Assembly: GCA_008632985.1 (NCBI GenBank)
Contig: QPGO01000073.1
Location: forward strand, 248,001-312,000
DNA from: Psammoneis japonica
Lineage: Eukaryota
Direction: 5' to 3'
DNA length: 64,000 nucleotides
The translations under genes and the position numbers were made by a program. The notes below the pieces were generated by a model. The model was not told where the DNA came from. It was given only the letters and a program-made list of their open reading frames with translations, and searched no databases. Positions 31,931 through 64,000 of the stretch are shown one piece after another (the first letter of the stretch is position 1; the number at the start of each line of letters is the position of its first letter).

Positions 31931-32083
31931 AGACTGCTGCAAAATCACTGCACAGGTTGCGCCATGTGGGAAAACTGCTCAAATGTGTGCACGCATGCAA
32001 CCACAACCAACATGAGAGAATGCAATGCCAAGTGACATTCAACGGTCATGACTGAGAGTTCCAGCCTTGGTTTTTCCAACCAA

Positions 32084-39488: not shown

Positions 39489-40197
39489 ACGGTTCGTTGA
39501 TAAGAGAAACGCGAGAGTGGGCAGTTTTGCTTACTAGTAATCGTTGGATTGGTTGATTGTTGCTGCAGCCTTTTTTATCGAGAATTACCGTTAGTTATGA
39601 AGTAAATGCAAACGTCTATCATAAAAGCGACAGAGCGGTTAGAATAGGTTTGCTGTCACAACCCTGGAATGAAGCGATCCGGTCTCTTGTTTTCCTATTC
39701 TATGCAAGAACATGAACAACGGCTTTTTGCTGACGCACAGATGCGGAACAGGTCTATCAACGGGAAATTTGGACCTTTGCACCACCGCCGGCACAGCTCT
39801 GTGGCTACACAACCGAAATGGAGGAGATTGAAAAGTGTGGATAGGCTGGAATCATACGGAAAACTTTATGGGCTAGTATCGACAAATAGAAAAGATAGAC
39901 ACTTCTATGGAAAGCTCTACTAGCCAGTCGAACATATCGCCTTCAATAGAGTTCCCTACATAGTTCTGTTTTAAAATTAATGTCGTTGTGCTTGCCCATG
40001 TGCTTCCCCTTAATGTAATTATTTGGGCTTTCAATTCGTCATCTAACCCTCAATCAGGATATATGAGCTTCGTGGTCGCGTAGATCAGTCGGTAGTCCGT
40101 CGGTCATGCTTCGATACAGCCTTGTTTGTCGTAGCGTGTGATTCTTGTAAACGTGATGTGTGATGGATGCGTGATTTCTTTCGTATAAAGACAGAGG

Positions 40198-41273: not shown

Positions 41274-41390
41274 GGTGATACAGGGACGAATGTCGAATTT
41301 ATCAGAACCGTGAACCGTCACAACAAGCGTCGTGCGTCGTCGCAGGATGCTCGGGTTCGCATCGTGGCATTCCACATCGCTAAAAAAATG

Positions 41391-42840: not shown

Positions 42841-44734
42841 CACTCGATTTTGGGGGGATCAGTGACTCCAAGAGAGGGGGGGAGGGGAGAGGAGAAAGAA
42901 GGAGGAAGAGGAGAGAAAGGAAGGAGAGAGGAAGGGGTTGAGAGGGCAGCGAGCTTGATCTAAAATGCGGAAGTGGTTTGAAGAGCGATCCTCACTTCTT
43001 TCTCACCCGATGTGTCAGATCTCCGGGTGCTCGCATGTTAAAGTAATTTGGTGTGGTGACACCGATGAGACATTGTAGTGTTGAAGTATCTCTAGTATGA
43101 ATTTTACGTAGAAATCTACGCAATTCAGGAGTTTCCCTCCGACACCAAACAAAAAATCGACCATGACAGCTGCAAGAGCCGGTAGTCGAAATTGTCGCCG
43201 TCACTTGTGATAATGCTGTGACAACAAAGCACGCATTAAAACTCTCTCTGATAAATGAATATACGAAAAGAGAGGTGTGAAAAACGTGAAAAATGGATAA
43301 GAAATGCCTTGGTACTTTTGCCATTTTTAGAACTCGTCTCTCACTCTTGCGTTGCAATTTCTGTTCGTTCTTGACAGATTGAAGAGCCCTCCTTTAAGTA
43401 TCGAGCATTAATGGCGTCTCGTATGCTGATGTTTTGTATTTCAATCGTTGTGGCTCCAGTCGACTCTTCTCCAGTCGTCAATGAGGGTTTGCTAGTCATC
43501 GGGGTGGCGTTTCAGGATTTCTACAGTGTCGCTGCTTGCGGCGTTGCCGCAGGTGCCATTGACACGCGACTTGAAGAGATTGATGGCCATACATTGATTG
43601 TGGGTGCGGTTTGTGTCGTTTTTCAATCTACAATCTACCACTTTGGCTGGAAAAGTCCGCGTATGAGCGGCAGACGAGGTTGCCCTCGTCTTTAAATAAC
43701 ACGGGCCACTGCCGAGGTTGCTGACTGCAGCAGCGCCTCGGCAATTTTTTTCTGCAATAATGTTCATGTGGCCCCACCTCTGAATATTGAGACGGCTGAC
43801 GAGAGCCAAGGGGTTGCTCCCCGGTAAGGCGTTGACTGGTGCTTCCAAGGACGGGAGTGCCTTCAACCGCCGCAGACCCGAATCTCCGTTGCGATAGGGT
43901 TCACCTGCCCTCAAAGGTGGTTTGGATTGTTAAAGTTTTGCAGCTGGGTGGCACAGGGAGCAGGTGGCACTGGATCAGCTGTGCAGGAGCATGGGAGTCT
44001 ACGGTGTTGGAGCAGCTGGTCGTGGTTCTGTTGCATTGCAAACGTTACTTTTGTCCTAGAGTTCATCTCTGTGGCATTGTTTCTGACTTCAGTCATTAAC
44101 AGCGTGTTCCATAGGGCACGCAAGTACGACTGCTGCTGCAACTCTTACGACCACTGCTGCAACTCTTGTGACTACTGCTGTTGTTGCGACCACTGCAACT
44201 CTTGCGACCCCTGCTAAAAAAAAACAAAGGTTGTTGATGCTGTTGGAGCGCAGGAATCGGCAGCGTTGATGCAGCTAGGCAGCACGGTACTCGGTGGCAT
44301 TGGAGCAGCCAGACGGTGAAGTAGGCGGCAGTGTTTGAGTAGCTGGGCAGCATGGGAGTCGGTTTGGACAAGAAATAAAATAGTGAATTATAAACTCATG
44401 GCTGAATGAAATCTGACACGATTTTTCTCGTCTGTCAATCACTCGCCCCCAAGATTGTGATTGGAGGCAGGTTCCGGGGAACCAGGGTGCTGCCCTCACT
44501 CTACTCTAGAGAGAGTAGCTACCCTTGCCACTCGAGAGACTAACACAGGGCTCTATCTAGTAGTAGCTAGTAGCTACTGCTCTAGGGCTGCTCGACATAC
44601 TAGCTACAGGAGACGGGAGTGCACTTCTACTAGAAAATGTCGACTGCTGCTTCTACTCTAGATAGTGTACCGGTGCAAGATGAAGCAATTCTTGAAGATA
44701 TACACTACAATATATAGTTAGGCCTAAGCCGAAA

Positions 44735-47700
44735 TCAAACACAACGCATTGTCTCTTTACCTCGCTTCTCAGAATCGATTTGTGGCAAAAGCAAATGTCG
44801 TTTCGAACGCGTTCGGTACACAAAGATATGCAGCACAGTTATCAACAGCCAAAGAACATTTTCATTTTGCATTCCAGCCTCAAGGAGCGACTCCCAGGGT
44901 GCAAATCCATTCACCATTCCGCTTAAAGATGTTTTTTGGAGGGCATTCTTTCACTTGTCCATCGTCTGAGTCGATGTACCGAATGCAAACGCCCATCCTG
45001 ACGCTTTCCGGAGAACACATACGGAAAAACTCGTCCATCTCAAACTCAATGCTTTTGTCACACATGCTTGGGATATCGGGCATTGCTACAAATTCAAACG
45101 TCGCCTCGGCAGAATTTCCGCAGACATCGGACTCCACAGCACTTACGGTGTATACGCGATCAGAGTCATCGCCTCTGACACCACTTTCTGTGTCCATGTA
45201 CAAGTACAGCACGTTGTCTTTGAGGAAGCAATCTGTTTCTCCGTCATGGTCTTTGGATGACGTCTCGTGATTATACTCGCAAGTCGTAAAGCTCGTAAGA
45301 ACGGCGTCGTCGCAGTACTGTGGTAGACTTGTGCCACAGTCGTCTTGACCGGCCGAAAAGCCAAAACGAGCATCCGTCATCAAATCCAACATGACCCACC
45401 CCTTGTTTTTATTAGCGTTACGAGAAGAAGTTAGGCAATTTGTCGTTCCACTTAAGGCAGGAGGTATGTTGTCATACACCTCAATCGTCTTGGTTTCAGA
45501 CGCCTCATTTCCAGCCGCATCAGATGTGTTCCAGGTCCGAACAAGCGTATAACTGTTAGGACAAGCACCGTCATCCCGCAATTCCTTAACATCAACCTTA
45601 CCACTAAAGCACGGGTCGTCATCAAGTGCCAGGACCGTCTCCAAGGGCGGCACCCTGTTGACGGGGAGGCTTTCATCCGTGAAACCATGCAACGAGAAAA
45701 GTACGGGATTCTTCGTGTCAGCTTTGGGTGCATTCGCGTTAGGATCAAGGCACTGTTCTGCCGGCCATGGTCCGGTACAAGATCCTGAAACTCCCGGGTG
45801 GCGGTCACACGTCTGCCAGCAGCAGTCGCCTCCATCATACTGATTCTCCTCCGTGTTGAGATCAGGGTCGCAGAATCTGTCACCCGCTTCTTGCAGTCCC
45901 CGTCCGCGTTGCTCAATCCTCTCCAAGGAACGACCTCCACTGCCGCTGCCTGCGCACTGCTCGCTGCTGACGGGTGTCCCGACAACAGATGGGTCCAAAC
46001 AATACATGGTGGCTGCATCGCAAAGGTTCAATGGCTCCCAGTCGGTCTCGCCGTCGTTGTTTTCGGGTTTCATGCAGGTGTGCATACAACAGTCACCCCC
46101 GTCATACTTGCACTGCGGAGTATTCCATGGGCCTCCATTGCAAAAGCCGTTGCCTGTCTGATTGAGCCGACGTTCGGTTCCGTTCGTGTCGGACGGATCC
46201 AGATCAAGCGATAAGAGCTGCTCGCAAGTGAAATCATCATACTGAGGATCTGAATAGTCAATGGGCTCTGGTTTCTCCACGCAAGCATCGATCGACGTTT
46301 GTCCAACCTGCAATGTGATTCTTCCATCCGGACACACCTCGCACGACTTGCTACCATACCCGGCTGCATAGGAGTTCACAGGACAAGGCTCGTAATGGTC
46401 CAATCCTCTGCGAGCTGTGTACGTCCCTGGACCGCACAGATCGCAAGATCGCATGGCTCCCGTCCTGCTGCTGTACGTGCCAGCTTCACAAGGGATGGCG
46501 CCGGTGCCCTCGTCTGAGTAGAACCCAGGCAGCACTTCGACACAACGCGTGCTTCCTTCGTCTATGGTTTCCGTTCCGGCGTCACACTCTTTGCACTGGA
46601 TTGCTTCTCCCTTGACGTCGGAGTAATGATTCGGTGGACACAAAATGCAACCGCTTTGTCCATCAATGGGTTGATACGTCCCTTTGTCACAGAGGTCGCA
46701 CTTGGCGTTCCCGGTCCCTGTTGAATACGATCCAGCCACACAAATCTCGCATCTAGTTGCCTTGGCTTCGGAATAATATCCTTCCTGACAGGCTTCGACT
46801 GCGGCCATAGAGGAGTTTCGATAGCTTCCAGCTTCGACGGGTTCGCAGAGGCCTGTCTGCATGTTGAGGAGGGGGTGGAAGCCTTCGCCGCAGCGGCACT
46901 CGTAGTCGACCCGAAGTGCCTCATCGTCTGGGTGTCCGATGTCTTCTGGAGATATTTCACAACTATCCTCCCCATCACAAGCGGTATACGCGACCGTCTC
47001 CTGCATAAACCCACTGCCTGTCTTGACTTCCAGCACGAATATCTCTCCACCTTCAATTGTGGAGCATTCGTCAAGGCTTGCAGCTTTCAAAGGTCCGTTC
47101 GCCTCCGAGAAAGCAACATCAGTACGCACGTTTGTTCCCTGTTCTGTCGTGTCTCTTCCAACCTCGAGGCAGGTGTACTCAACAGTAATTCCGTCGCATT
47201 CTTGCACGGTGCATGAATCTGTCTTCTTCCCATCACAATCCTGGCGAGCTCCACTCAGACAAGCTTGTCTCTGAGTCCACCGGGCGGTGTGTGTCTCTCG
47301 CTGTTCGACGTAAGATCCTAAAACTTTACTAAGAGCTTTGTACTCATCAGCGAGGTGATTGCAAGCTTCTGAAGGATTGGCGCAGTTGTTTAGTCTTGTG
47401 AATCCCTGTTTCGCACATGCACATTTTAAATCCTTTTCAAGCCTTTTATCCATTTCAGTTGAGATTTTGTAACTGTTGGGGACAGTTTGACAACATGCAG
47501 ATGGTGAGGGAGCGCCACCTGGCCCCGTGCAAAACCTGGTACAAGTTCTGTAAATTTTCTCCATTTCTTTCCTAACTCCATTTCGCTTTCCTTTGAGGAA
47601 GGCAAGCATCAGATCGGCTGAGTCCCATCCATTCACAGATGGCTCGACGCTGGTGCGATACTGGCAGAACAGCGGAATAGAAGGTTTGAACGTCGGGTCT

Positions 47701-49610
47701 GCGCAAGGATACCCGTACAAGAGGCTGTCGATGGCGATGATGTCCTTACCAGACGGTGAGCAATTCATCGTCCCTCTGTCAGCTGTAAGCCAGTAGGGGA
47801 GTAGGTCGATCTCTTTGATTTGATCTGAAGAAACACAGGTGTAAAACACAGTCAGCGAATTGAAAGTATCCTGCTCAAGCCCGGGCATTGAGTTCTCGGG
47901 TTCTGAGATGAACCTGTCAAAGGGGAATCCGTCGCATGCTTGCGACCCAAGGAGGCTGGCATCGATTTCACAGCTGTTTACGTCGGTGTCGCACGGGAAA
48001 ACAACCTTTCCGGTTATGTCGTCGGAGCCATCCAAACACAACGCCGTTCGGCGAACAGCCTTGATAACCAGCGGCACCGTTTCAGTAGGACAGGTCACTG
48101 ATGTTTTCCAAGTCGTGGACGTTGACATGCGGTATTCCAGACCACCAAAAAGCGTCGTGTCAATATTGCCCGAAGTGTCAAACACGCCAGCCCAAGGATC
48201 AAAGACAACCTTTTCCATAAGGCCGTTCAGAAGGTCGAAGTGAGGGTCGATGTAGCGGGCCAAAAAATCCGTGGGAATGATTTCGGGCATATTGACATCG
48301 ATATCAGCCAACTCGGGTATGTCCAGTTCTTCTGCTAGATAGTCAAGAATGTCCTCCACAATCTCATCAGGATTGATATGTAGCTCCTTCAAAAGCGCTT
48401 CTGCAAATTCATACACCATGTCTTCCAAATCACAAATGGCTGTCAATGCGTCCGGGCACGCCAAGAACGAGAACGCGCTGATTACCACGTCGAAGGCTTC
48501 GAACAATGGAGCAAAAGGTTCGACCGCTCCACCAACTTTGTTGAGGGGAACCTTGATATCTTCAACGAACGACTGAACGGCCTGGTAGGCTGGTAGAATT
48601 GTGTCATCTAGATACGCGTCGATTCTTTCCATATCCGTGTTGAATCGTTCCAAAGGTGGTATCGCCTCGCTGAACTTTTCGAGATCAAAAGTGCCCGTGT
48701 AGCTCAGCCTCCGGTCCGAACTGTGGCTGCCACCGGTGGAATCGTAAAACTCTTTCAATGTCAGCCCTTCTAGTTTGCGAGAATGAAGCTGAATCAAACG
48801 ACGAATAGTTCTACGAGCCTCGGGGTCCTTGACGTCGTCCAAGAGAGTGGTAAGAGCCCTCGCAGCGTCAGTATCGGGTGTCACAGTCCCGTCATCGACT
48901 CGAAGATTGCGGCGAGACACGGCGTCTTCGATCTTCTTGAAAAACGCTTGGACATTGTTAACGGTGCAAAGACTCTCATGGACTCCGTAAAGCGCGGGCC
49001 GCAGAGCATATCGAAAGACGCTGTTTATTAACCCCTTGCATTACACAGAATGAAGCAACGTGTTAGTTCACTTCATAATACGAAAAAATAGAAAAAAGAA
49101 TGCGTGGTGTATGCATTACTTACGAGTTTTCCGACGGCCTTTACAAAGTACCGCTGCATTTTCGAGTTCAATTCGCACTTTTCATCCAGTTTATTTTCGA
49201 GTTTCACAATTTTTTCGGCGAATGTTTTAAATGGCTTTAGTCGCCTCCCATACTTTTTGATGTAAGGAATTTTCACCGAGATACCAATGGCATTAGCAAC
49301 TTTTTTTCAATGCCCTAGATACCTTGACGATTTTCCAGACGTCGCTAGCATATGCCGCACAAAACGGAGAAGCCGAAAATTTCATAGCTTCCACGATATA
49401 AAAGATCTTGAAATTCTTGTAGTTCGAGTTGTAAATAAACATTGGCTCCTCAATTTTTCGAATCCATTCACCGGCATCGCGTAGATCCTGAGGCCCATCT
49501 TCGTCAAACTCGCAATACGAAAACCCGGTGTCGTCAGTGGCCTGACCCAAGCTCTCGTTCAAACTTCCCATAGCCACAACGGCGAGCAAGAGAAGGACTA
49601 GTCGCTTCAT
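44735..49610 (-). CDS. Large secreted/surface Cys-rich protein with ephrin-receptor-like (GCC2/GCC3) repeats and Notch/LNR-like modules, multi-exon
   Basis: Signal peptide MKRLVLLLLAVVAMG at 49610; 1346-aa ORF 44880-48920 with CxxCxxGxY repeats and two YDGGDCC modules. The true C-terminus is uncertain (44880 or 44735). Confidence 0.8.
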
Positions 49611-49809: not shown

Positions 49810-52800
49810 ACCATGTTAAAAGCTGATGAGTCTTCCGCACTGCACACCAGTGTCACAACACCACCAAAGACAATTCAAACGGGGGGGGGTCAATGCATCG
49901 TCGCAATTCCAACATCGACCATTGCACATCATCACATGTTGATGGGTCCAACGGCTTCTTTTTATGGTGAAACAAAACCCCTGCAACTTGGTCATGACAT
50001 GATGTGGTGAGGCAGCATCAGAGTGCAAACAACGCCATTGCATCATCGTCATTGTGAGTGTGGCATGCATGGATGCTGCAGGTTGCTTCACAAATTTGAA
50101 CGAGCTGACCTCCGGGCAAATCCTTGCCTCCGGGTGTCTGTTGTCCCCACTTCCTCTGCAGTGCTTGGCTGGCTGTGCACCAGCCATTTGCACAAAATTG
50201 CTGAAAATTGCGGCATTGCATGGCCGGCGGTGCACCAACTGCATTTTGAGGCTTGTCTTTGATGGTCGATGTGTCAGCAATGCAGTGTGTCTTAAATGAT
50301 CTCATCGCTTCAGACAACAAAGCAAACATTGAAATTCATCCTGCTCAGTTTGTGGAGTTTGATTTGCTTGGTGTGTGTCATCAAAAAAGACATTGGTTTT
50401 TGCTGTTGCAAAATCTCTTGCTGCACCTTGGTTTCTGTGTCAAATCAACCAGAGAAATTTGTTGCTGCTTTCCCCTGGGCACAACCGCATGAGTCCGTTT
50501 TTGGAGTCATTTGCTGTTGACAGAAAACCTGACTGGCACCAACCAAACAAGAAGACAACAAAATGTGACTGAGTTTGAAGAGCACAAGGAATTGGCATTC
50601 CCAGATGATGATGATGATTCAAGCCATGAAAGCCAAAGCAGCACAACATCCATCGGCAGTCAAAGCAACTCATCCGATGAAAAAGAGGATGAGACTGCAG
50701 AATGGTGTGAGACTCCGTTTGGTCCTGGTGAAACGGAACTTCATTTTGGTGATGCTGAAGACACTTTTTTGAAGAACCACTTTGAAGAAACAGGACAGAT
50801 GAAACAAAACCTGGTGACCAAAGTGAGAACTTTGCACTTGCAGCAAGCGGCAACATCAACATCAAACATGCGCCATGAGCCAGATGAGGCAATGGCAGCA
50901 AATGAGATGTTCAATGTGCTGTTTGATCCTCTGTCAGTTTGTGACGAGTTTCTCGGTGCAATGAACACCAACCTGCAGCAGAAAGATTGCATCTCAGCAA
51001 TTTTTGCAGAGCTTCAAGCGTTTGTTTGGATCACATTGTGGCTCTGCTTCTGCAACAAGGGACCTGGAGAATTCATTAAATTTCCTGAAGACCACCCATC
51101 TGTCCAGAATGAAATTGACAAATTGAGTGGTGGCAGCCCTGCCAAAAAGCATGAGTGCCTGCATCATCTTTTGTGAGGAGTTTGGAAAGAGACACCCAGC
51201 CAAGCCAAATGTCATCAATGACTTGGTGCCCTGTCTTTGACTGTGATTGGTCATTGGAAATTCTTTTTTTGAAATGAGGGGTGAAGCTGCATCAAGCATC
51301 TGCTGCATGCCGGGGAAGACTCAGCTGGTGACAGATGATGACAAGCTTCGCATGCGGTCTTTCTTGTCAGCAAATGTCTTGCTTGCAAGGAGCAAAGAAC
51401 TTCACTCATTTGGCCCAGCATGCAATTCTGTCAATTCCCTTGCCACTGGTGCAGAGCTTTCAGGACACATGACACACAACTCAAAGAGTGCCACAGATGC
51501 CCTTAAAACAAATCTTCTCACCACATCTGGGCAGCAGAATCCTAAGTTGAGGCAGTTTCCGGACACAATGACACTTGGAGATTGAGGACATGGTGATGAT
51601 GACAGCAACAAGTGTTGTGATCTCTTGGAAGCAACAGACTTGGACACAGTGAACACCATGAAACATGGGCCAAACATGTCATTTGAGTTTGGTGAGACAG
51701 GACACAAGACAAGCCTCAAGCAGCATGTGACGTGTTCCAGCTCTAGCTAGGTGGGACCTCGCACTACTGAACTGTGACATAATTATTTTTTATCATCCGT
51801 CGTATGTTTCGCACGTACATTTCTACGTGTTCTATTATAAAAAATTGTTCCACACTGCCTGTTTTGCGAAGCCAAAGGCTTTCTGTTATCTGCACTTATG
51901 TCAATAAAAATGCGCTGGGTATATTCTTTAATGTCTAAAGAATATACCCGGGCATACTGTAAAGAATGTACTTCAAGTGTGGAGGAGGAGATACGTTCGC
52001 AAAATTGCCTCTTTTTCTGTTGGCGATCATTCACATATACATTGCTTAATAATTTTACTACGGAGCTCGCACGTAGAATTCTACGGGCCCAATGTCACAA
52101 AAAGTCCCACCTAGGACTGGAACCCGTCATGTCATTGTGGAGGGCGGACCTGCCATTGCAATCAGCGCACACAAAAAAGTGGGTAGAATGACACTGTGTT
52201 TGACAGCTTGGCAAAATGGAGCAGGCCGTGTTGCATTTCTGCAATCTGCCAAGCCACAGCTCAGTGCATCACAGGTTGAGTGTTGAGTGAGAGTGTTTGA
52301 GAAGTGAGCTTCCCCACCCTGAATGTTTTCACTCAGCAGCAAGTGGCAGCATGCATCATGGGGGCCATGGACATGCTTCCAATTGCTGGATTTGCTGGGC
52401 AAATCTCTTTGTGTGGAAACATGAAAGCAAGGCTTGCTGGAGTGGTTTGTGCCATGATTGTGGTGATTGACTTCCACTCTGTCGCACCACTTGTTGCCGA
52501 GGTTGAGGAGCGGACCATCTGTGACAGAAATGGATCTGCTTGAAAATGTTCTCCACATCAAATTGCAGAACGACCCACCACCAACTGATCTCTCTCATTC
52601 AACAAAGTCAATTTTGCATCTCTCATGGGACTCCAAAGAGATGAGCTTGCACACATTTCAAGGTCGCGTGGTCATCCTGCGAGAGGTGCCAAGGCTGTCT
52701 TGGTGGACAGGATTCACAAAGGACCAGCCAAGCATTTGGAGCCAACTGGGTTTGAATCGTTGGTTAAGAGAACCTTTCTGAAACTGCTGCCCGACAAAGA

Positions 52801-54290
52801 CAAGAGTGCCCACAAGCTCGGATTGCTCAATGAATGGAAAGTCTGGGGTGCAATTGGCCCAATCCTGTCTGACCATTTCGAGTGTGACTTGGCAGAGCTG
52901 AACAAATGTGGACTTGTTGGTTGGCAACATTCCAACTGGTTGGCAACGTCACCAGACGGATGGATCACATGCAAATCTTGCCCCCCCTTCCTGCACGGAT
53001 GAAAGTGGCAGAGCTGATTCAAGTCTGAGTGACCGACTCTGTGCTGGATCAGAGATGAAGTCACCTGCAGGAAAGGACACAAAGAAACTCGTCCAGTGAC
53101 ATCAAGATGAGTTTGGCAATCATTCAATGCACAAATGTGATGATGCTCTTTTCAAGGCGTTGGTTTGCAAACTGGAGTGCCGAGTCCAAGTGTTGCATCA
53201 TGCCGTGGTTTGCAGCTTTGAAAAAGTTCTGTTCATGGTGGCCAATGAATGCAAACCAATGTTCTCTGTTGTGGTGTCTTTTTGAGAAGACCAGAAATGC
53301 AACTGCGAGACTTTGTCATTTCAAACACATCAAAGGGACTTGGAGTGGGTGCACACAACAGCATGGGACAATGAGTCGAATCCAAAAAACCACAGGCCAC
53401 ACCAAGCAATGCTCACAACATTGATCATGACACCATTTTGTTTCAATGCGCAATGTGGCACAAGCTGCTTCTAAAAACAAGTGCAGCAAGAATGCCACTG
53501 CCTGTGGCAAAGTGCATGGTGTCATCCATTGCAGCTTTCTGTTGGAACAAGGGAAAGGGAAGGATTGATGAAATGAGCCAACACTTGTTGCTCCACATGA
53601 TGTGACACATTTCATGTGGAACACCAAAGCAGCTTTTGAGTCTTCAAGAAATTGAAAAAAATGTCTCTCTGAAGAAGCAATGTCATCATTCCTTCCCAAA
53701 AGAAGCACCCAAAGGAAGAACACTGTGTCAGATCAAGCACGCACTTGACAAAAGAGAAGGGTCTGTCACAGCTTTTTTGAGTGAGCTTGCTGCCACATGC
53801 ACCACAGTTGCACAGATGCCTGCGACACCTGCGTCTCCATGCACGGCCTTCCACACACCAGTGTAGAAAGCTGTGCAGAATTTTTGCATGAAAATTGACC
53901 AATTTCATGGTCAAACGATGAGTCAACTGCAAGATTCAATGGGTCTCTCGAATTCAAATGTCTTGGTCTGATTTTGCAAAACACTTGAAACACACAACAC
54001 TGCATGGCCGGCCGTGCACTGTGCACTGGGAGTGGGGGCAGGTGTGCTGCCGTGCCACAGCAGAGTCGTCGGGCACACAACGTGCGCATGTGTGGGGCCT
54101 TGCCCTGCACATGACAACATCGTGCCAGGCAATGTGCCGGCCAGGAGACCTCCAACTGCATGGACCGCCACACGTCACCCATGCACTCCCTTCCCTTCTC
54201 TCTCTGCTTGCAAGCCTCACACTCCACTCCCTTGCCTGCTTGCTGCCCCAACAATGCCTGAACCCTGAGCAGTTCTGCCTCATGCTGCAA
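49810..54290 (+). mobile_element. Decayed DNA transposon block with DDE-transposase-like and YqaJ/lambda-exonuclease-like remnants
   Basis: Acidic N-terminal region (50511-51176); LVTDDDKLRMRS; GD*GH (probable GDRGY) at ~51577-51591; CGLV...WLATSPDGW, EMKSP and QVLHH at ~52905-53200. TpA-depleted except for the nested MITE. Confidence 0.55.
51729..52128 (+). mobile_element. 400-bp MITE, unconverted TA-rich copy
   Basis: Terminal inverted repeats GACG(T/G)GTTCCAG...TAGGTGGGAC...TGTGACAT; flanked by ATGT on both sides; perfect 14-bp-stem hairpin at 51917-51949. Confidence 0.9.
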
Positions 54291-54297
54291 CGCAAAT

Positions 54298-54694
54298 GAC
54301 AGGTTCCAGTCCCAGGTGGGACTCCGTGTGACATTGGGCCCGCAGAATTCTGTGTGCAAGCTCCGCAGTAAATTTGTTCTGCAATGAAAATGCACATGAT
54401 TGCCAACAGAAAAAGAGGCAATTTTGCGAATGCATCTCCTCCTCCATGCTTGAAGCACATCATTGACAGTTTGCCCGGGTGCATTCTTCAGACATTGAAG
54501 AACACACCCAGCGCATTTTCATTGTCACAAATGTTGAAAACAGAAAGCCTTTGGCTTCGCAAAACAGGGAGTGTGAAACAATTTCAGAGAACATGACATG
54601 CAGAAATGCATGTGCATGACATGTGACACGATCCAAAAAACCATTGATGTCACAGTGCAGCAGTGCCAGGTCCCACCCAGAGCTGGAACGCGTC
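54298..54694 (-). mobile_element. Full-length, TpA-converted copy of the same MITE (inverted)
   Basis: Aligns end to end with the reverse complement of 51729-52128; flanks are caaat / taaat. Confidence 0.9.
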
Positions 54695-55520
54695 TAAATT
54701 GCAGCTCCCCATCTCGCCCCCACCAGCTCAAGTCTGCCTCTTGCCCCTCTTGCTCTGGCACCATTGACCCATGCGGTGACCACGCCTTCTGCTGCCAATC
54801 CCTTGGACACAAAACAACCATGTCCAATGCCATCCATGATGGCCCACGTGCCACTTTCCAAACACTTGCCCTGCTTTCCGGCATCTGCGTGCTTTCTCTT
54901 CCGCCTCACATCATGAACCAACCAACCTCCTGATGCCTCATTCACCCCTCAAACGCCCCACCAATGCGGGCATCCAACTCACCCCAGCCACCTTTGCTGC
55001 CTCCCCCATTGGCCACCGACACCTCGCCATTGATGTCGCTGTCCCCAACCCCCCCCCCATTGCCTGCTCCTGGCTTGCCTGCCCCCGCCCTCAACCCTCA
55101 CACCGAGGCACACCATGCAAGCACAAAACGGAAGTTCAACGGAACCCATGAGACTCAAAATGAAGCAACCCTCACATCCGCCCTTGACAACACCGGCAAC
55201 CACCTCATTCCCTTTGCCATCGACCATCTGGGGGCCCCAGGCCACACTTTGCCCATCGCCTTCTTTTCTGCGCCAACCAAGACCACCCCATCCCTGCCCC
55301 ACCCGCCCCACCCTGGACCACTGAACCCTCCTTTCAACACCCAGCTGCTCATGCCGCACACGCCTGTGCCCAACAATCCCCGTCCGCCATCCTCCCTGCC
55401 ACCACCGACACCTGGCAAACCATCTCTCTGCCGAACACTTTGGCCTGACCCACCACTCTTCAACTCCGTCACAATGGGGTCTTCAAAGCCTGAGCCTTGC
55501 AATCACCAAATTGCTTGCTG
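54695..55520 (+). mobile_element. Decayed 3' end of an RLE-type non-LTR retrotransposon (CCHC knuckle plus restriction-like endonuclease)
   Basis: CPSC...DPCGDHAFCC...NAIHD, KRPTN (probable RPAD), LAIDVAVP, HLIPFAIDHLGAPG. Confidence 0.75.
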
Positions 55521-55779
55521 ACCAACTAACCCGCTACTCCACCAAACTACAATCTCAAACATCCAACCCCAACTCGAAATCCATCCCTTTTCCTGCCTAC
55601 ATGACTCAGTCCGTGCAGTTCCACCTCCGCGTCTGTCCCTTCCCCCGTGCCACTAGCTAGTTGCACGTGAACTCCTCACGCGCGCGTACGGTACTACTAC
55701 CGTACATACGGTAGGTAGTTTCCCTAAAACCCATGATAACTTGAACTGCCAACAATAACGTCGAGAATCATCGAGGATC

Positions 55780-58700
55780 GTGTTCTGCGACGAAGGAGCC
55801 TTGACCCACAAGCCACAAGGAGCGACAATGAATGGACATCGGCGAGCGAGCCTCGGGCGTCTCGATTTTTCGGTCGACCGTCGGCTGTGGGGAAGAGCAG
55901 GGGAAGTGAATCAAATTCGGAGTATCTTTGACAGAATATGCGAACCCGAAGCACCCGTTCAAGTGTGCATGGTACACGGCTTGTCTGGAACGGGCAAGAC
56001 GAGGCTCTGTAGGGAATCGACAAAGCACGTTCCGATATTTTTGGAAGGAAAATTCGAGCAATACGTCGACTTTTCATCGCCGTATTCGGCCATCGTTCAG
56101 GCCCTTGATGGGCTCGGCAAAGCTTTGCTGCTCCGAGAAGAGGACGATAAAGACGTGGAAGATTTTCGAAATGCTCTTTCTCTTGAAGGAAAAGTCCTCA
56201 CCCGGTTGATCCCCAGCTTTGCTCAGCTCGTGCTCAATGAGGACTTGTGTAAGTCTTCGTCGGGAAACCTCAACATGGCCTCCGAACGCCTTGCTGTCGC
56301 CTTGCGGGCCTTCTTGCGCACCTTCTGCACGCAATCACGTCCATTGGTTCTGTTTATTGATGATGTACAATGGGGTGATGTAAACTCATTGCAGCTGCTG
56401 TCAGCTGCAGTTGCAGATCAAGAAGCACATCACCTGTTGCTGCTGATGGGCTACCGAGATGAGGAGTCGAGCAGGATAGACTCGTTTCTTTCGTCGCTAC
56501 CGAGTTCGGTCCACGATGTTCCTGTTAAGAACTTGAATACTGAAGCTTTAAACGATATGGTGGCGGAGATCGTGTCCCGAGATCCCAGCGACACAAAGGA
56601 ACTGGCTGAGCTCATACACCAAAAGACGTTTGGCAACCCATTCTACGCGATGCAGTTTCTGGAAGGTCTAAAAACAAACAAACTGCTCACGTTTGATATA
56701 ATGTCTGTGCGATGGAACTGGAAGATGGAAGAGATACGTTCCCAAACAGTTGTAGCCGAGAATGTTGCCGACTTTGTGACAAGAAGAATTGTAGAATTGG
56801 ACTATAAAGTCTTGCAGGTCTTGCAGCTGGCCGCTTGTTTGGGCTTTCTCGTTGACCTACAGCTACTGCGACGTTTGCACGACGCATTATCCGAGTTCTA
56901 TCCCGAGAATCAAACACCTGACGAATCACAAAAGGAGAATGAAACGGCGACGTTTAACTCTTCTATTGCCGTCGCACAAGAAGAGAATCTAGTTGTGGCT
57001 ACGGAATTCCAGTGTAGATTTACCCACGATCGGATACAGCAGTGCGCGTACGAGCTCATCCCCGCCGGTACACCCCGTGAGCGGCTCCACTTTGCTATCG
57101 GGTTACACATTTCTCAGCTTGGTCAGGATCAGTTTGTCTTTTTGGCAGCAGATCAGCTCAATCGCGGTTCATCGTGTATCAAGAATGATGCAGACCGACT
57201 GGCACTCATTCAATTGAACGTTAAAGCAAGCAAAGCTGCCCAGAAGAGGGCTAGCGTCGTTTTGGTGGCTGACTTTCTCTCCCGAGCTGTAGATCTGGTT
57301 AAAAGCTCTGACTGGGACAGATCGTACGACCTGGTTCTTGACCTGTACTGTAGTCTTGCCGAGGTCGAGTCGACGAGGGGGGATTTTGACAAAAGCAACG
57401 ATTTGGTTCAGACTGTACTGAGCAATTCAAAAAGCGATAATGACACAGTTCGGGTATTGGCAGCACGGGCGAAGGCACATTTTTCGCGCCTAGATTGTCA
57501 AGCAGCTCTCAGAGACTCACGAAAGGCGTTGCGTCTTCTCGGCGTTCACATGCCAATGTCGAACTATCTTTCGCTCTTTATCGAGCTCAAAAGGACGAAG
57601 CGGCTTTTACAAGGCTTCTCAGACAATGATCTCCTCGAGCTGCCTCTAATGACAGATGTAGACAAGGAAGAGGCCGTGATGATCTGCCTCGATTGTTGTG
57701 TTTATGCCTGGAGCAATAACGATTCTATTACGTACGTGCTCTCCTGTCTTGAAATGATGAAACTGTCTCTCCTCCACGGAAAGAGCGACGTAACTCCCCA
57801 GGCGTTTGGTGCTTATGCTATAGTGCTTGCTTTCATGGGCGAGAAACCGCAAGCCTTCCGGTTTGCGCAGCTGGCCTTGAATTCCATCGCTTCTCGTAAG
57901 TCCATTCCTCCGACGTATGTGTCTGCGTATTGCTTCGTCAATCACGTGAAGCTTCCTTGTGCTCTGAGCATCGAGCCCATGCTCACCGCGTATAGAATCG
58001 GAATCGAAACCGGGGACATGCTATGGGGGTGCATCTGTTTGGGTCTCTACTGCGACTTCTACAAGTTCTGTGGACTGCCTCTTGGCACGTTCGCGTCGGA
58101 TATGCGTCGCTTTGCGGGTCAGCTCAAGCTTTGCCATCAAACACTCATGCTTAGTTTAATGCTGCCAAACTATCAGCTAGCGTTGAATCTGTCTGGGCAG
58201 TCGGATGACAGTGTTGAGATTTCATGGGACGCGATCAAGAAGCATGGATTCCTCGATGATGCTGATACGGATGTTGAGAACAATAATGCTACCATCGTTC
58301 TTGATTACAACCAGATCTTTAACGCCTATATTCTGGGGGAACTAGATGTTGCTCGAGAGGCTCTCGATCGAGTCTTGAGCCGTAAAATCGGGCAAAGGAG
58401 GTACGAGGGGAATCACTTTCTCAATTATATGTTTAACTTCCTCGATGGTCTTGTTGGACGTGAAGTCTACGCTGCAACCAAGAAACGGCGATATCATAAG
58501 TTTTCCGAGCAAGCTCTGCGATGGCTGACGAAGACAAATACGGTCGACACTTTCCCGCTTCGGCGTCTGTTGGAAGCGCAGAAGGTGGCAATGTGCCGTT
58601 CTGTTGATGGAGAGACTGCTAGACAGGGCTACAACGAAGCCATTGCTCTTTTGGCACGAGCTGGTTTCACTCATTTCTGTGCAATTGCAAACGAGCAGAT

Positions 58701-59024
58701 TGGAAAAACATGCTGGTATTGGAGGACAACGATTGGGCAGAGCACTACCTCGCGAGTGCCCTCAGACTCTACCAGGAATGGGGCGCAAGTGTCAAAACCC
58801 AGCAGATGCTTGATATGTATGGCTTTCTGACAGCCTCTAAGGCCAGTGTCAAGAGGACGTCAAACATTCGCGGGTTGGCTCGCTTTGACTCGAACAAAGA
58901 TACCAGTAAATCGGAGGAAGTATCCAGCTCTCGTCGGGTATCCGAAGCGACTATGCTTCCCGCGAATGAAGTAGAGCTGGATTACCACAGAAGTGGAGAA
59001 ATAGTTCTGCGGGGTCGCACTTGA
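55780..59024 (+). CDS. COG3899-like P-loop ATPase (AAA_16) with helical/TPR-like C-terminus; frameshift near 58705
   Basis: GLSGTGKT Walker A, LVLFIDDVQWGD Walker B, KTFGNPFY, FTHDRIQQCAY, AADQLNRG; the tail YQEWGASVK is in ORF 58710-59024. First ATG is at 55828. Confidence 0.9.
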
Positions 59025-59399
59025 CATTGTCGGTAATGTTGCCGGATGGGTCACACTCATTTTCTCGGACCTGGTCGTTCGAGAAACAGGGCCTAGGACG
59101 CCGTTCAATATATGAAAGGAGAAACGATTCCATCATGGACCCGTTTGCCTGACCATGAAATGAATTTCGCGGCACCCGACTTTGCACGCCGTTCCGGTGG
59201 TGCTTTCAAGTAGGGTGACCTAAGTTGTCATGAGGGCAATCTAGATTTTCTGAATTTATGTTGAGCCTTGTAATACTTGATATGAAACAGCACAGTAAAA
59301 AGTTGCCAACCCATGCACGTTTGTCTGTCAATTTGGGTTCACTCCTCTGACATCTAGAACAGCTGTGAGTCCTTGAGGAGGTCATTCCGACTGCAACAA

Positions 59400-60131
59400 C
59401 TCCATTCAATTTCTGCTCTTCATCTTGAGACAATTCCTCAAACACTTGCAAAAAGGCCTGGGTTCGTTGTGCCCCCGAAAGACCACAGGGTGTTTGTCCT
59501 TCGGCTCCAATGACAAAAAAGGGAACACCTGACCTGTGATGGCGTCATCACCTGGATTCAATTTCCTCCAATGCTTGCTGCATGCTCTCTTTGCTCTCCA
59601 GAAATGCTTGAGTCTCTTGCAGCTCTGGGATTAATTTTGAACTTGCCACCTCGACCAATGCACCGCCCATGAGAGAAACATTTTCACCCTCTTCATGAGT
59701 GGCTTCAAAGAGAACTTGGTTCACAAGACTCATGTCAATGCTGTGCCTTGTGTTTGCAAACCACACGAGACGATGCACCAAAAGGGTGTGTGACCACCAC
59801 TTCCAATTCAAAAATTTTGCACTGTCTTCTTGTCATTTTGGATCTCGCATCCATCCACTCCCACCCCAACGGCGGTGATTGCATGCTTCAAACTCTTCTC
59901 CCACCTTGTTGGTGCCATTGTCAATCATGTGAGTTTCCAGTTGACATTGACATCATTGCCCTGAAAGTGGTCCATGGCCTTGTTCAACCGCATTTCCCCC
60001 ACCAAACACCAGGGTTGGGCCAAATCAGAGCAGACTGCAGCACGAGCGGGTGGTTTTGCAGAAAGAGACATGGCACACTGGATGGCAAGCAACAACAATG
60101 CAAGTGATGAGAGCCTCTGCAGAGTTGTCAT
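59400..60131 (-). pseudogene. TpA-converted DsbA/FrnE-like oxidoreductase pseudogene
   Basis: Signal peptide; VCSDLAQPWCLVG..RL.KA; HRLVWFA; LFEATHEEGENVS; FLESKE; SGVPFFVI; LSGAQ..QAF. Contains stops and frameshifts and no Tyr. Confidence 0.75.
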
Positions 60132-61299
60132 TGTGTTGGTGTCTGCCGAGTCATTTTTCCAAACCAAGAAACAGGTTGCAATTTCAAATTGCCCTTTTCC
60201 CGCCTTTTTTTTTGGTTTTCATTTTTGCACACATTTTGTGGAGGGGCCTCTTTTCACGGAACGTGCCTCCACACTCCGTTTCAAGGAGATGCCCAAGGAA
60301 TGTGGCAAGCATGTTCCATGTGACCATTGCTCTCTTTGCACTCTACAATGATGACCCATTCCCGGTGTGCATTGCACACAATGCACGTGGCAAAATTCAT
60401 GAGATTGCCCAAAATCGCTGACGTGCATCATGGGCAATGCACGTGACATCTTTTTGCACAACTTTGTTGTTTGACTTGTCTCTTAAAGAGCCTCAGTTAC
60501 AAATGCCAACACATCCTTGTCATCTGCTGTGCTTGACATGCTTTGTGCTGTTTTTCCAGGGTTTGATTGGCTCAGCTTGTTTTCCAACAATTGCTTCATT
60601 TTCCACCACTCAGAAAGCACGCGACAATGCACGCAAACAAGACACAAAAACTTCTGACCCTGCTTTGTTGTTGAGAAGCATTTCCAGGTGAGACAAGCAA
60701 AATCTGGGATGACAATGACCCTGCATGGAAAAAAAGATGCAGAAATGGACTGATGCATTGCCCACAGCACACATGCAAAGAAGCTGTGCAAGTTTTCCCA
60801 CCACAAGTGCCCAGTGTTTGTGCATCAGCTTTGATGAGACAGGTTGACTTGGCACTTTTTGCTTTTGGGGAGGAACAACCTTCCATCCACTGCAAGATTC
60901 ATGTGGTCACTCTGATTCAAGCTTGGCAGGGGAAAGGCATGAGAGGGTCTGAGTTGGTGTGCATCATGTGCAGCATCATGTGCAGCATGCACTGTTGTGC
61001 ACATTTTGCATGCATGCATGTGCATTTAAATGTTGCTGCACTCCAATTGTGCATCAATCATGGGTTTGTGCGAAGGACAGATCAACTGCACAGAGTTGAT
61101 TGGATGTCAAAAATTGCAAACACAATTGCTTGATGATGTTGACATCTCATGTGTCAATGACAATTGCATCCAGACAATCTGTCATCATGATCACATTTTC
61201 CAAAAGGCCTTTCATGTGCACAAGCATCACAGAAGCTTCAGGGCATTGAGAGCTGATTCAGAGAAACCCGGAATGATTGAGCAAAATCTAATCTCATGA

Positions 61300-63828
61300 T
61301 TTTCACTTTTCACACTTCACTCTGCTTTTGTCTGTGCTCATTCTTTGAGCACATTGCATTGTGGCAGACAATGGCACTCATGAAATTCTGAGCTGAGCAC
61401 CAAATGTTGGAAAACCAAAATTCCCCAAGGGTGGAGCCTTCAAAAAATGTCAACAGCACCTTGCAAGGCATGTTTTTCCCAAGAGCGCACTTCAGGTTCA
61501 GAAGTGTTGTCTGCAGTGCAATCTCAAGAAACCAGAGATGATGAAAATTTGAGAAATTGCCGCTTGGGTCCAAGAAGTCATCAAAGACCTCAAGTTCCAC
61601 CCTCCCTTTTAGGAAGATCAGAAGATCAAGGCAACAAGCTCAAGGACATCCTTCACAATCTTGCACTTGCCATTGTCAAGGTTTTGAAATTTTGAAGCAT
61701 GCCTTTGACAAGTTGGTCAAGTTTTTGGAGCATCTGGAGGTTGCCAAGGACACATTTGACTCCATTCATGTCAAGGCTGATGCCAGCAGCAAGTCTGGAT
61801 CAAAAGCAATGACAAATCCAAACATGGTTCCAAAAATGGTTGCCAATCTTGTGCCAAATGGTCTGAGTCCAACAAGTGGTGCAATTGTTGTGAAAAGACC
61901 ATTCATGTTGTGGACAAGCGCTGGGTCACATCAAGAGACCAGGCAGCAGAAAAAAAACTCAAGGCAAGTTCATCAAAGAAGAACATGAAATGCAAGGACA
62001 AAGAGTGCAGCTCTGACACCCTCACTGAGGAGAAATGCCAATTGAAAAATTGACTCACAGCAAATCTGATGAATGACTGTTGTGTGCAGAGGAGTCGTGC
62101 GCATCACTGGATGTCAGGAAGCCCAGACAAAAGGCCAAAGTGGCACACACTGGTCCACCAGCAGTCATTGCCTGCATGACACTTCTCCAGAAAAAGAGAA
62201 AAATGAGCCTTTGTGTGTTCTGCTCAACAGCGGAACATTGTCGACCACAATTTTGCAGAAGTTTGTGTGAAAATTGAGAATGAAGAAATCTGCTGCCAAA
62301 ACTTGGGAAACCAAGGGTGGGCTCTTCACAACTGACAGCTGCTGTTCAACTCAGTTCTCATTGCCTGAATTTGACAAGCATGAAAAGAATGAAGCCACTG
62401 TGCATGTGGACATCAGCGCTGCTTCTTCATGTTGCTGTGATGTGGTCATGGGACATGACTTGATGTCCAGTCTTGGAATTGTCCTGGACTTTGTGAGTGA
62501 AGAAATTGAATGGGAAGATGCCATGACCACACCCATGAAGAACCCAATGCCATTTTGGATGCCAAAGTGTTCGCACTGATGGCCAGTCACATTGAAGAAT
62601 CTCATGCTGTGAAAAGTCTTGATGACAGGATTGACAAAATCCTTGCAGCGACTGTCATGCTGCCAACCTCAATGATGCAATGGCTGCTGCAACTCAGCCA
62701 ACTCCAGTGGAGCAGAAACAACTGAACTTCCTCCTAAAAAGATTGGAGCCCTTTTTTGTGGTTCTCCAGGCAAATGGACAGGGAAACCAGCGCATCTCAA
62801 GGTGAAGCTGGGTGCATGTCTGCATCACATGATGTCATTTCCCGTCCACAAGCCTTGGAGGCAACCACTTGCCAGGAGGTTGTGAGACCATGCAAGCCAA
62901 AAGTGCTAAGAAAAATGACCATTTGAGTGGGCAGCTCCAACCTTTGTTCAACCCAAAAAATGGCCAAGTTTGGTTTCCACCCAACTTCCCTGAACTGAAC
63001 AGTGGTCAATGCATGCACTGCATCCTCTGCCAGATGTTCAGGACATGCATCAGAAGCCAGAAGGTTTCAGGTGTGCAAACTCACTTGATTTAAACATGGG
63101 ACACCATCATGTCAAGTTGGTGCCATTTGCACAGCACTTGCACAATTGTCATGTTGTGGGGCAAACATGAACATTGCAGACCACCCATGGACATTTGTGG
63201 AGCTCCAGACATCTTTCAGGGGGCACATGAGTGAGCTGATGGCAGGTCCAGAGTTTGTCAGGATGCGTGTTGACACCACATGCCATGCACTGAAAAAGGT
63301 GACTTCAAAAACCACCTCTCAACACAGATGATCTTCATGTCGCTCAAACAAGCTGGTGTCAAGCCACCAGAAGTTGACTGCTTGGGCTTTCACATCACCT
63401 GAAATGGCGTTGAGCCAATGCTTGAGAAAGTGGAGCAGATTTGCTCCATTGCAACTCCTGCAACTTGCAAGGAATTGCAGTGTTTCATTGGTGTGTCGTC
63501 AATTGCTTTTGGGGCATGTGGCCTGGACGGTCTCATGTGCTGCCCCTTGGCCAGACTTGGATGAGCACAGAACAAAAAGCCTTCAAAATGTGAAGTGCAC
63601 TGTGTCAAAATGTGTGCTGTTGTCATGCCCAAATTTCAACAAACCCTTTAAGACACACACGCTGATGCAAGCAGTGCTCAATTGGGGGTGGTTGTGACAC
63701 AAAACAACTGACCCATTGCCTTCTGCAGTTGCAAGTTAAATGCACCAGTGCAGATGCACTGCACTGCAACAGAAAAAGAACTTCTGTCCATGGTTGAAAC
63801 ACTTGAGGAATTCCAAAACATCCTGTTT
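61300..63828 (+). mobile_element. Decayed Ty3/Gypsy LTR retrotransposon (gag-protease-RT-RNase H), interrupted by a MITE
   Basis: VLLNSGT protease site, WETKGGLFTT, CDVVMGHDLMSSLGIVLDF, PDIFQ..MSELM, LLSCPNFNKPF, DAS, PIAFCSCKLN, TEKELLSMVETLEEF. Confidence 0.9.
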
Positions 63829-64000
63829 GACGCGTTCCAGCCCTGGCAGGTGGGAGCTCGTAGTGCTGACGTGTGACACAAATAATTTTTGTCATCCGTC
63901 GTATGTTTCGCACGTGCATTTCTACGTGTGACATTAAAAAAAAATTGTCCAGACTCGCTGTTTTGCGAAGCCCCAGACGTTTTACATGACGAATTTATAG
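63829..64000 (+). mobile_element. Partially converted MITE copy running off the window end
   Basis: GACGCGTTCCAG terminus; tcatccgtcgtatgtttcgcacg is identical to ~51793-51815. Confidence 0.9.

Follow-up and report, generated by a model that had tools for sequence, protein, structure and literature searches.

The window analysed here comprises 64,000 nt of the diatom Psammoneis japonica (GCA_008632985.1, contig QPGO01000073.1, positions 248,001 to 312,000 of the forward strand). Near its right end, at 62200-63828, lies an interval that is assigned by similarity to the protease, reverse transcriptase (RT) and RNase H portion of a degenerate Ty3/Gypsy long terminal repeat (LTR) retrotransposon. 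We are highly confident that this interval, together with several other blocks of the window, has undergone a hypermutation that erases the dinucleotide TpA (TA). The process operates on DNA, is specific for TpA, treats both strands alike, is targeted regionally and is separable from the decay of CpG (CG) seen in the same places; it is confined to blocks containing repeats and a pseudogene copy. The fuller statement, of a dead Ty3/Gypsy element rewritten by targeted TpA hypermutation and CpG decay, with adenine deamination as the most likely cause of the former, is probably correct, and adenine deamination as the specific chemistry is put forward more tentatively. The first-pass annotation had described TpA loss in the altered Gypsy motifs of this interval; regional TpA-erasing hypermutation goes beyond that account, yet a process of this kind was already described in 2026 in another alga.

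Relative to expectations from base composition, the interval 62200-63828 contains 5 TA (115 expected) and 13 CG (89), along with 201 TG (97) and 181 CA (106). Its observed/expected ratio (o/e) for CG is 0.15, compared with 1.03 in the neighbouring host open reading frame (ORF) at 55780-58830, which has a TA o/e of 0.55. The larger Gypsy block to which the interval belongs (Table 1) contains 12 TA (325 expected), 48 CG (237), 498 TG (262) and 516 CA (294). A 1 kb dinucleotide scan, used together with a map of TA-free gaps, delimited six sharply bounded blocks in the window, at 1-2000, 7388-8315, 26480-33272, about 41570-42840 (block D), 49964-55526 (interrupted at 51729-52130) and 59356-63827. 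Inside them the TA o/e is 0.00-0.05 and the CG o/e 0.1-0.4, with TG and CA about doubled; the intron-poor host genes between the blocks have a TA o/e of 0.4-0.75 and a CG o/e of about 1. Six blocks set between normal host genes correspond to the delimited regions of TpA hypermutation known from the alga Bigelowiella natans (discussed below), and the replacement of CG by TG or CA, with a CpG o/e far under the host background, is the pattern of methyl-CpG decay. That the interval is one block of a sharply bounded phenomenon running through the window, and that TA loss and CpG loss can be told apart, was missed by the first-pass annotation. The retroelement does not end at the right coordinate, 63828; an unmutated miniature inverted-repeat transposable element (MITE) has inserted there.

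A phmmer search with 63403-63828 as query (stops as X) against 1.84 billion representative proteins returned 628 matches at E ≤ 1e-3, the best at 1e-17, and the long matches were Ty3/Gypsy Pol proteins. Two of these relatives with normal Tyr content, P0086 and P0014, served as references for a protein-to-DNA aligner that tolerates frameshifts, written for this analysis. Residues 82-653 of P0086 gave 542 aligned positions, 231 of them identical, with 14 frameshifts and 3 in-frame stops; for residues 1-524 of P0014 the values were 497, 220, 12 and 2. P0086 has the domains RVP, RVT_1 and RT_RNaseH, and both P0014 and its cluster member P0155 (1497 aa) have RVP, RVT_1, RT_RNaseH, Integrase_H2C2 and rve, arranged in this order in P0155. 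The order protease, RT, RNase H in the window is collinear with these relatives, and an integrase part would lie beyond the MITE at 63828 or the window end at 64000. No LTR pair was found when the window was compared with itself, and the 3' end of the element lies outside the window. When the RNase H piece was used in a word-indexed homology search of longer proteins only, none of the 43 candidates was significant, and phmmer found no match among PDB sequences at E ≤ 10, so that no solved Ty3 structure served as a reference.

Only the last 56 residues of the interval pass a Pfam cut-off (Table 1). RVT_1 gave no match at E ≤ 0.01 in any single frame of the interval translations, the RT region can be aligned only when frameshifts are allowed, and the catalytic YIDD motif has been lost; the missing single-frame RVT_1 match and the missing YIDD reflect decay and not membership of another family. 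This Gypsy copy is dead, because 12-14 frameshifts and 2-3 in-frame stops, which are TGA, have accumulated within about 1.6 kb in addition to the loss of YIDD. The earlier claim that coding function was destroyed is thereby borne out.

The motifs on which that claim had been built, LLNSG, CDVVMGHDL, LLSCPNF and PIAFCSCKL, are all four present and stand opposite Tyr, Arg or Asp versions in the relatives; their positions, given in Table 1, were obtained by three-frame translation and motif search. Substitution counting REPLACEMENTS at the Tyr positions of the two references gave a consistent result. At the 21 Tyr positions of P0086 the window reads Tyr at none, Cys at 8, His at 5, Phe at 4 and another residue at 4, and at the 24 of P0014 it reads Tyr at none, Cys at 7, His at 6, Phe at 5 and another residue at 6. 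No Tyr has been kept in either set, compared with 54% Tyr, 15% Phe, 5.8% His and 0.5% Cys at 1920 Tyr positions when nine normal long relatives are compared among themselves. An alignment of 48 sequences over the RT-thumb/RNase H piece gave column percentages for 45 normal relatives: Tyr is found in 73% of them under 63724 and in 96% under 63760, and Arg in 91% under 63730; the window has TGC in all three. Other replacements of the remnant fit the same two decays, including Leu to Pro (six cases, CTA to CCA), Ile to Met (five, ATA to ATG) and the CpG-type changes of Arg to Gln, His, Trp, Cys or stop and of Asp to Asn after C. Codon steps of the type TA to TG/CA or CG to TG/CA account for 67 of the 311 mismatches with P0086 and 65 of the 277 with P0014, where 1000 shuffles each gave 24.9 ± 4.3 (maximum 39) and 21.5 ± 4.1 (maximum 35).

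The direction of the change can be read, with no recourse to protein sequences, from pairs of related sequences within the window. The segment 44397-45842, which comprises the 3' end of an intact 1346-aa ORF, 44880-48920(-), and its downstream flank, is duplicated at 41375-42840. In a site-by-site list, the mutated zone of this copy (block D) nearly coincides with the duplicated segment. At 64 aligned TA sites of the gene copy, the duplicate has TG at 27, CA at 19, TA at 13 and another dinucleotide at 5, and the reverse case, TA in the duplicate opposite TG or CA in the gene, occurs twice; CG has become CA or TG at 23 of 78 sites. The second pair belongs to a MITE family of about 400 bp with short inverted termini TGACGYGTTCCAG...CTGGAACCCGTCA, which is present at 51729-52130, 54296-54694 (inverted) and 63828-64000, with a partial copy at 1542-1723. 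Two of its copies, 17% apart, are unmutated although they lie inside or against TA-free blocks, and one copy is hypermutated. At 31 TA sites of the copy at 51729-52130, the copy at 54296-54694 has TG at 16, CA at 5, another dinucleotide at 9 and TA at a single one, and CG has become CA or TG at 9 of 17 sites. With the copy at 63828 as outgroup (172 bp), all five shared TA were changed only in the block copy (TG 3, CA 1, TC 1), and the opposite pattern was found at no site. A tandem pair of guanylate-cyclase genes, 33391-35298 and 37563-39490, which are 82% identical, served as a control and proved symmetric (15 versus 13).

When the block D and MITE pairs are pooled, 68 of 89 TA sites (about 76%) have gone to TG or CA (A to G at 44, T to C at 24), compared with 4-5% of other A/T sites (A to G at 14/342, T to C at 18/360). 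Changes were found at 6/324 and 7/265 of the C or G sites outside CpG, and at 13/90 and 18/93 of those within it (31 lost of about 91). The change therefore runs from TA to TG or CA and is restricted to TpA, as in the B. natans type. The directions proposed in the first-pass annotation, TAY to TGY or CAY, CGN to TGN or CAN and, after C, GAY to AAY, are supported both by these pairs and by the relatives with normal Tyr content. Change of TA to CG was seen in no case in the paralogue pairs; a single hit abolishes the TA site, so that TA never becomes CG, and TG and CA act as a sink.

The process acts on DNA and not on RNA, since a MITE and a segmental copy of a gene fragment, neither of which has an obligatory RNA intermediate, are mutated equally, and since the strands are affected symmetrically (TG versus CA: 791/819 for the largest block, 498/516 for the Gypsy block). 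When all TG/CA steps were submitted to runs tests, z ranged from -1.9 to +2.3 for seven block segments and from -1.6 to +1.6 for 13 host ORFs. On the polarised sites the runs test was weak for block D (P=0.027) and gave no strand-coordinated tracts in the MITE pair, and no processive single-strand tracts are claimed. The extended context is not neutral. Rates of A to G change per strand were 28/58 for TAC, 19/45 for TAT, 13/37 for TAG and 8/37 for TAA, or 47/103 for TAY versus 21/74 for TAR (p=0.028); these counts are not fully independent, because a TA site takes only one hit, for which its two strands compete. Secondary targets show the same leaning (CAC 7/56 and CAT 6/63 versus CAA 1/65 and CAG 1/50), with C-A-Y in 13 of the 15 non-TpA hits in a CA context. 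Among the 33 TA that survive in the blocks, 14 (42%) are in TTAA, compared with 4.5% of 1749 background TA (odds ratio 15.6, p=1.5e-10), and 12 (36%) are in CTAA or TTAG, compared with 7% (odds ratio 7.7, p=1.7e-6). The preference is thus for T-A-Y, and TTAA and TTAG/CTAA are refractory.

TA loss and CpG loss differ in pace. Block D has lost about four-fifths of its TA and only about one third of its CG, which shows TA loss to be faster than CpG decay. Among 80 metagenomic Gypsy relatives (the best-scoring 80 of 514 confirmed loci, a choice that favours intact copies and is uninformative on frequency), none was TA-free, with TA o/e values of 0.59-1.06. Four of them are poor in CG (o/e 0.01 for L050, 0.12 for L012, 0.13 for L072 and 0.15 for L020) at a normal TpA o/e of 0.62-0.74, which suggests that CpG is methylated and decays in their hosts in the absence of the TpA process. 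The two losses can be separated, since there are such CpG-depleted, TA-normal relatives on one side and the TA-poor, CpG-richer block D on the other.

The sequence of the Gypsy block was compared with Logan contigs of DNA run X1, which showed 3 differences in 330 nt (59440-59769), 6 in 583 (60543-61119), 1 in 336 (61708-62042) and 3 in 671 (62926-63588); run X3 yielded no matching contig. Contig depth in this run over the TA-free block was 47-60, comparable to that of a host gene, as for single-copy sequence. An assembler artefact is thereby excluded, though not every base-calling artefact. The Gypsy family itself is repeated, with a summed depth of up to 3652 in run X1, and other copies of the family keep CG and TA where the window has CA or TG, as seen at the loose ends 61132 and 61182. 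For 59440-59769, runs X1 and X2 also contain a second version at half depth, which keeps TA at 59486, 59541 and 59573, and CG at 59470, 59491, 59530, 59537, 59547, 59550, 59553 and 59582. This version is either the other haplotype, which would imply recent or ongoing hypermutation, or a less-mutated paralogue.

Intact, active relatives with Cys or His at the same positions would contradict the account given so far, and candidates for such relatives do exist. In the 1.84-billion-protein library, 8 of the 132 relatives of at least 100 aa are Tyr-poor (0-2 Tyr), with 5.5-12% Cys plus His compared with 4.5% in the rest; the eight stem from JGI, ENA and NCBI records. Three of them, P0004, P0026 and P0094, have 0, 2 and 0 Tyr within 383-432 residues and give unbroken RT and RNase H domain matches of 75-91 bits. 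They are nevertheless best read as further victims of the TpA process and not as functional variants, because Tyr is nearly absent, the same Tyr columns are resolved differently among them (C/H/H, C/H/F) and P0026 reads HIDD in place of YIDD. Strong RT and RNase H domains without breaks in these Tyr-poor relatives suggest bursts of TA hits that outran the accumulation of insertions and deletions (indels).

A literature search found one paper on TpA hypermutation, on B. natans, and no report for diatoms. In that preprint, 231 of 302 nuclear mutations in B. natans mutation-accumulation lines fell in integrated nucleocytoplasmic large DNA virus (NCLDV) and virophage DNA, and all but one of those were A to G or T to C, all such changes being on TpA (Mettrop et al., April 2026, bioRxiv 10.64898/2026.01.13.699255). 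The same source gives a rate of about 6e-7 per site per generation, found only in some lines, and an enrichment of reverse-transcriptase and DDE domains in TpA-poor coding sequences, and its authors propose an ADAT2/TadA-like adenine deaminase. The likeness to the window is close, as TpA goes only to TpG or CpA, on both strands and in regions of foreign or selfish DNA, and the long-term footprint of low TpA with high CpA and TpG is shared. The differences, as far as the available part of the report extends, lie in the host (a stramenopile here, a chlorarachniophyte and hence a rhizarian there), in the sequences hit (LTR retrotransposon, MITE and duplicated gene fragment, versus NCLDV or virophage inserts) and in the degree of TpA removal, which is near-complete in the window (o/e 0.00-0.05) and leaves 0.45 in the B. 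natans NCLDV region. The preference for T-A-Y and the refractory TTAA and TTAG/CTAA sites have no counterpart in that part of the report. The B. natans signature comes from measured de novo mutations, and that of the window is known from its footprint in the sequence.

Repeat-induced point mutation (RIP) of ascomycete fungi is a dinucleotide-specific transition hypermutation that acts on DNA and kills repeats within sharp boundaries; it converts CpA to TpA and so enriches TpA. The process in P. japonica resembles RIP in being a DNA-level transition hypermutation with sharp boundaries, and block D covers almost exactly a duplicated segment. Its direction is the opposite, however, as TpA is removed, and the base attacked is A (or T) and not C. 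Neither a gain of TpA via CpA nor mutation of both duplicate copies was found: only 41375-42840 was hit and its partner at 44397-45842 was not, and the tandem pair starting at 33391 and 37563 is untouched. The deaminases ADAR, which favours a 5' U, and APOBEC act in animals on RNA or nascent cDNA and leave strand-biased tracts. Hypermutation of selfish elements, presumably by a deaminase here as well, is common to both cases, and the difference is that derivatives of DNA transposons have been hit here and that the strands are symmetric. In diatoms, transposons are CpG-methylated via DNMT5a, and there are also DNMT4 enzymes that are relatives of RID, the RIP factor of fungi, and whose function is described as unknown (PMC9998398). 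Deamination of 5-methylcytosine in methylated transposons accounts for the half of the changes that runs from CG to TG or CA, with Arg to Cys, His, Gln, Trp or stop and Asp to Asn after C, but cannot yield TA loss.

We propose that two context-specific transitions, both ending in TG or CA, have rewritten the element: a near-saturating hypermutation of TpA to TpG or CpA, and the ordinary decay of CpG to TpG or CpA that would be expected for methylated repeats. The former would be enzymatic, of the kind seen in the B. natans mutation-accumulation lines, and presumably targeted at silenced or repeated DNA. A TadA/ADAT-like deaminase may turn the adenine of T-A into hypoxanthine, which would be read as G in the next replication and give TG from a hit on the top strand or CA from one on the bottom strand, and this process would be quicker than both CpG decay and the accumulation of indels. 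The preference for T-A-Y resembles the native U-A-C target of TadA. Stramenopile-specific deaminase-fold proteins, among them CDD/CDA-like deaminases that also have SAM and tudor domains, are possible candidates (PMC3239186).

Other explanations share some of the evidence. The attack might fall on the thymine of TpA, oxidised by a dioxygenase of the TET/JBP type to 5-hydroxymethyl- or 5-formyluracil, which would mispair with G and give T to C with the same regional targeting. The products would be indistinguishable from those of adenine deamination and the strands symmetric, and it is a point in favour that 5-hydroxymethyluracil of dinoflagellates is reported to favour TpA and TpC and that 5-formyluracil causes A:T to G:C transitions. 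The C-A-Y secondary targets, however, fit a purine-centred Y-A-Y better than a preference centred on T, and no evidence of such a modification in diatoms turned up in this analysis; we regard thymine chemistry as unlikely. Slightly less likely again is the absence of any dedicated enzyme, with a context-dependent bias of replication or repair in heterochromatin slowly converting TA alongside CpG decay. TA and CpG are lost in the same blocks, as this would predict, and the age of the blocks alone could account for young MITE insertions that remain unmutated. It is difficult to reconcile with an at least 15-30-fold specificity over other A/T sites and 99% removal, with TA loss outpacing methyl-CpG decay, with Tyr-less relatives that are free of frameshifts across 380-430 aa, and with the finding that 0 of the 80 metagenomic relatives, including the four depleted in CpG (CG o/e 0.01-0.15), show TA loss. 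The B. natans process is moreover episodic and 1000-fold above background (bioRxiv 10.64898/2026.01.13.699255).

The remaining alternatives are much less probable. RNA adenosine deaminases typically favour a 5' U, as the B. natans preprint states (bioRxiv 10.64898/2026.01.13.699255), and the affected element is a retroelement, so that ADAR-like A-to-I editing of retrotransposon RNA, fixed through reverse transcription, comes to mind; yet the same changes are found in the MITE at 54296-54694, which derives from a DNA transposon, and in a segmental duplicate of a gene fragment, both strands are equal in the Gypsy block (TG 498, CA 516) and the blocks reach beyond the recognisable coding parts, which makes editing very improbable. 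We give equally little credence to a sequencing or assembly artefact in which modified bases of silenced DNA were miscalled as TG or CA. In its favour, the boundaries of the blocks are sharp, the DNA with which they coincide is likely to carry modifications, and the library type of the confirming run is off record. Against it, the k-mer contigs of run X1 deviate from the blocks by 0-6 differences per 330-670 nt and have the depth of a single-copy gene, the element has, besides its frameshifts, numerous other substitutions, the same Tyr-less footprint is seen in independent public records, and the B. natans signature was measured on Illumina data (bioRxiv 10.64898/2026.01.13.699255). An adaptive avoidance of TA, by which a functional family would have purged TA and Tyr, for example in escaping a TA-directed nuclease or mutator, is the least credible, despite Tyr-less relatives with open frames of 383-432 aa. 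For the copy in the window it is refuted by the frameshifts, the TGA stops and the loss of YIDD; in the Tyr-less relatives the same Tyr column is resolved as C, H or F, with HIDD in P0026, and non-coding repeats and a pseudogene fragment are affected alike.

Several points weigh against targeted adenine deamination as the explanation. The products would be the same whether an adenine deaminase or an oxidase of the paired T were at work. The choice of target is puzzling, as the duplicated gene fragment is mutated in one of its two copies only, the tandem gene pair of 82% identity is untouched, and two MITE copies in or next to blocks are unmutated despite 17% divergence. The assembly and run X1 probably stem from one sample, and the library type of the run is off record. 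Every block in the window is CpG-depleted, and the available part of the B. natans report gives no CpG effect; as TA and CpG loss coincide in every block, they may have a common cause, although the disparity in block D and the CpG-free, TA-normal metagenomic relatives, judged from their composition, would speak against one. With these reservations, adenine deamination can be extended to a broader and more speculative model, in which diatoms, and perhaps the whole SAR group (stramenopiles, alveolates and Rhizaria) together with B. natans, would possess a RIP-like defence based on a DNA adenine deaminase of TadA/ADAT ancestry. Such an enzyme, with a T-A-Y preference, might be aimed at silenced or repeated DNA, possibly via the marks that also guide CpG methylation, and might erase nearly every TpA, and with it Tyr codons and TAA and TAG stops, in bursts that precede indels, with a blind spot at TTAA and TTAG/CTAA.

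If TpA hypermutation operates in diatoms as it does in a chlorarachniophyte, it would be a widespread eukaryotic means of inactivating selfish DNA and no curiosity of one alga, and one mechanistically opposite to fungal RIP, with A:T going to G:C in place of G:C to A:T. Beyond what the available part of the B. natans report contains, the window adds the near-complete saturation, the action on a DNA transposon derivative and a pseudogene copy, i.e. not only on viral inserts, the separability from CpG decay, and an extended sequence preference suggestive of TadA-like enzymes. In practice, moreover, TA-free DNA seeds long spurious ORFs and Tyr-less 'proteins' in public collections. The TA-free blocks, about 21 kb in all, contain 107 such ORFs of at least 90 aa in all six frames, because TAA and TAG stops are missing. 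Pfam searches of 107 stop-to-stop ORFs from all six blocks gave only chance-level matches below the cut-offs, leaving the other blocks unclassified, and nine ORFs around block D gave nothing. Tyr-less 'proteins' of TA-free origin are already present in public protein collections, as seen for 8 of the 132 relatives examined.

Table 1. Features of the window, with positions counted from its first nucleotide.
Feature	Position	Strand	Details
Pol remnant	62116-63825	+	Collinear with protease-RT-RNase H of Gypsy relatives; frameshift-aware alignment
Protease active-site motif LLNSG	62220-62234	+	LLDSG in relative; Asp lost, GAC to AAC after C
Protease motif CDVVMGHDL	62436-62462	+	YDMIIGRDI/YDMIMGRDL in relatives; TAT to TGT, CGY to CAT
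RT motif MGHHHV	63096-63113	+	MGYYHV in relatives; Tyr to His twice
RT catalytic YIDD region	63254-63280	+	FVRMRVD, then frameshift at 63275; YVRAYIDDLLV in relatives
RNase H motif LLSCPNF	63617-63637	+	LLAYPDF in relatives (quoted as LAYPDF); alignment and motif search
RNase H stretch, the only one above Pfam cut-off	63658-63825	+	RT_RNaseH_2 32.4 bits (cut-off 29.8); RT_RNaseH 28.2 bits (cut-off 24.8)
RNase H motif PIAFCSCKL	63712-63738	+	PIAFYSRKL/PIAYYSRKL in relatives; TAC to TGC, CGC to TGC
HCTATEKELL	63757-63786	+	RYTTTERELL in relatives; frameshift-aware alignment
TA-free, CpG-poor Gypsy block	59356-63827	+	Upstream part, gag-like region and protease-RT-RNase H; left edge from TA-gap map, right edge at MITE
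Largest TA-free block	26480-33272	.	3 TA in 6.8 kb; no recognisable domain remaining
TA-hypermutated gene-fragment duplicate (block D)	41569-42840	.	Copy of 3' end of gene 44880-48920(-)
Hypermutated MITE copy	54296-54694	-	Within block 52131-55526; compared with unmutated copy 51729-52130
Unmutated MITE copy (about 400 bp)	63828-64000	+	Inserted in RNase H region, cutting the visible element; 83% identical to 51728-51873; TA and CG kept

The MITE family is extremely abundant, as k-mer depths in run X1 add up to about 42,400 over 63729-64000. A reading of 51729-54697 as a single 3-kb element with inverted ends of 400 bp was considered and rejected, each 'arm' being a complete MITE of about 400 bp with its own short inverted ends.

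The host genes between the blocks include those for a cyclin H-like protein, IBR and PAH proteins, two DUF6824 proteins, two PAS-guanylate cyclases, an ankyrin protein, the 1346-aa Ephrin_rec_like protein and an NB-ARC/TPR protein. The tandem cyclase genes (33391-35298 and 37563-39490) encode PAS-PAS-guanylate/adenylate cyclases and are both intact, with no TA loss, and an ankyrin-repeat gene, 36062-37153(-), lies between them on the opposite strand. Two adjacent genes, 17986-19077(-) and 20628-21827(-), have an N-terminal DUF6824 domain (E 4e-22 and 2e-27). For the DUF6824 ORF, the commonest phylum among the nearest Atlas clusters is Bacillariophyta (score 0.89, a lead only). No other feature of the window gave a clue to lineage, and a second Atlas query, with the cyclin, was uninformative in this respect. 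The 694-aa ORF at 2980-5064(-) matches no Pfam family and contains internal tandem repeats of about 550 bp at 3014-3565, 3570-4119 and 4242-4797 (69-74% identical).

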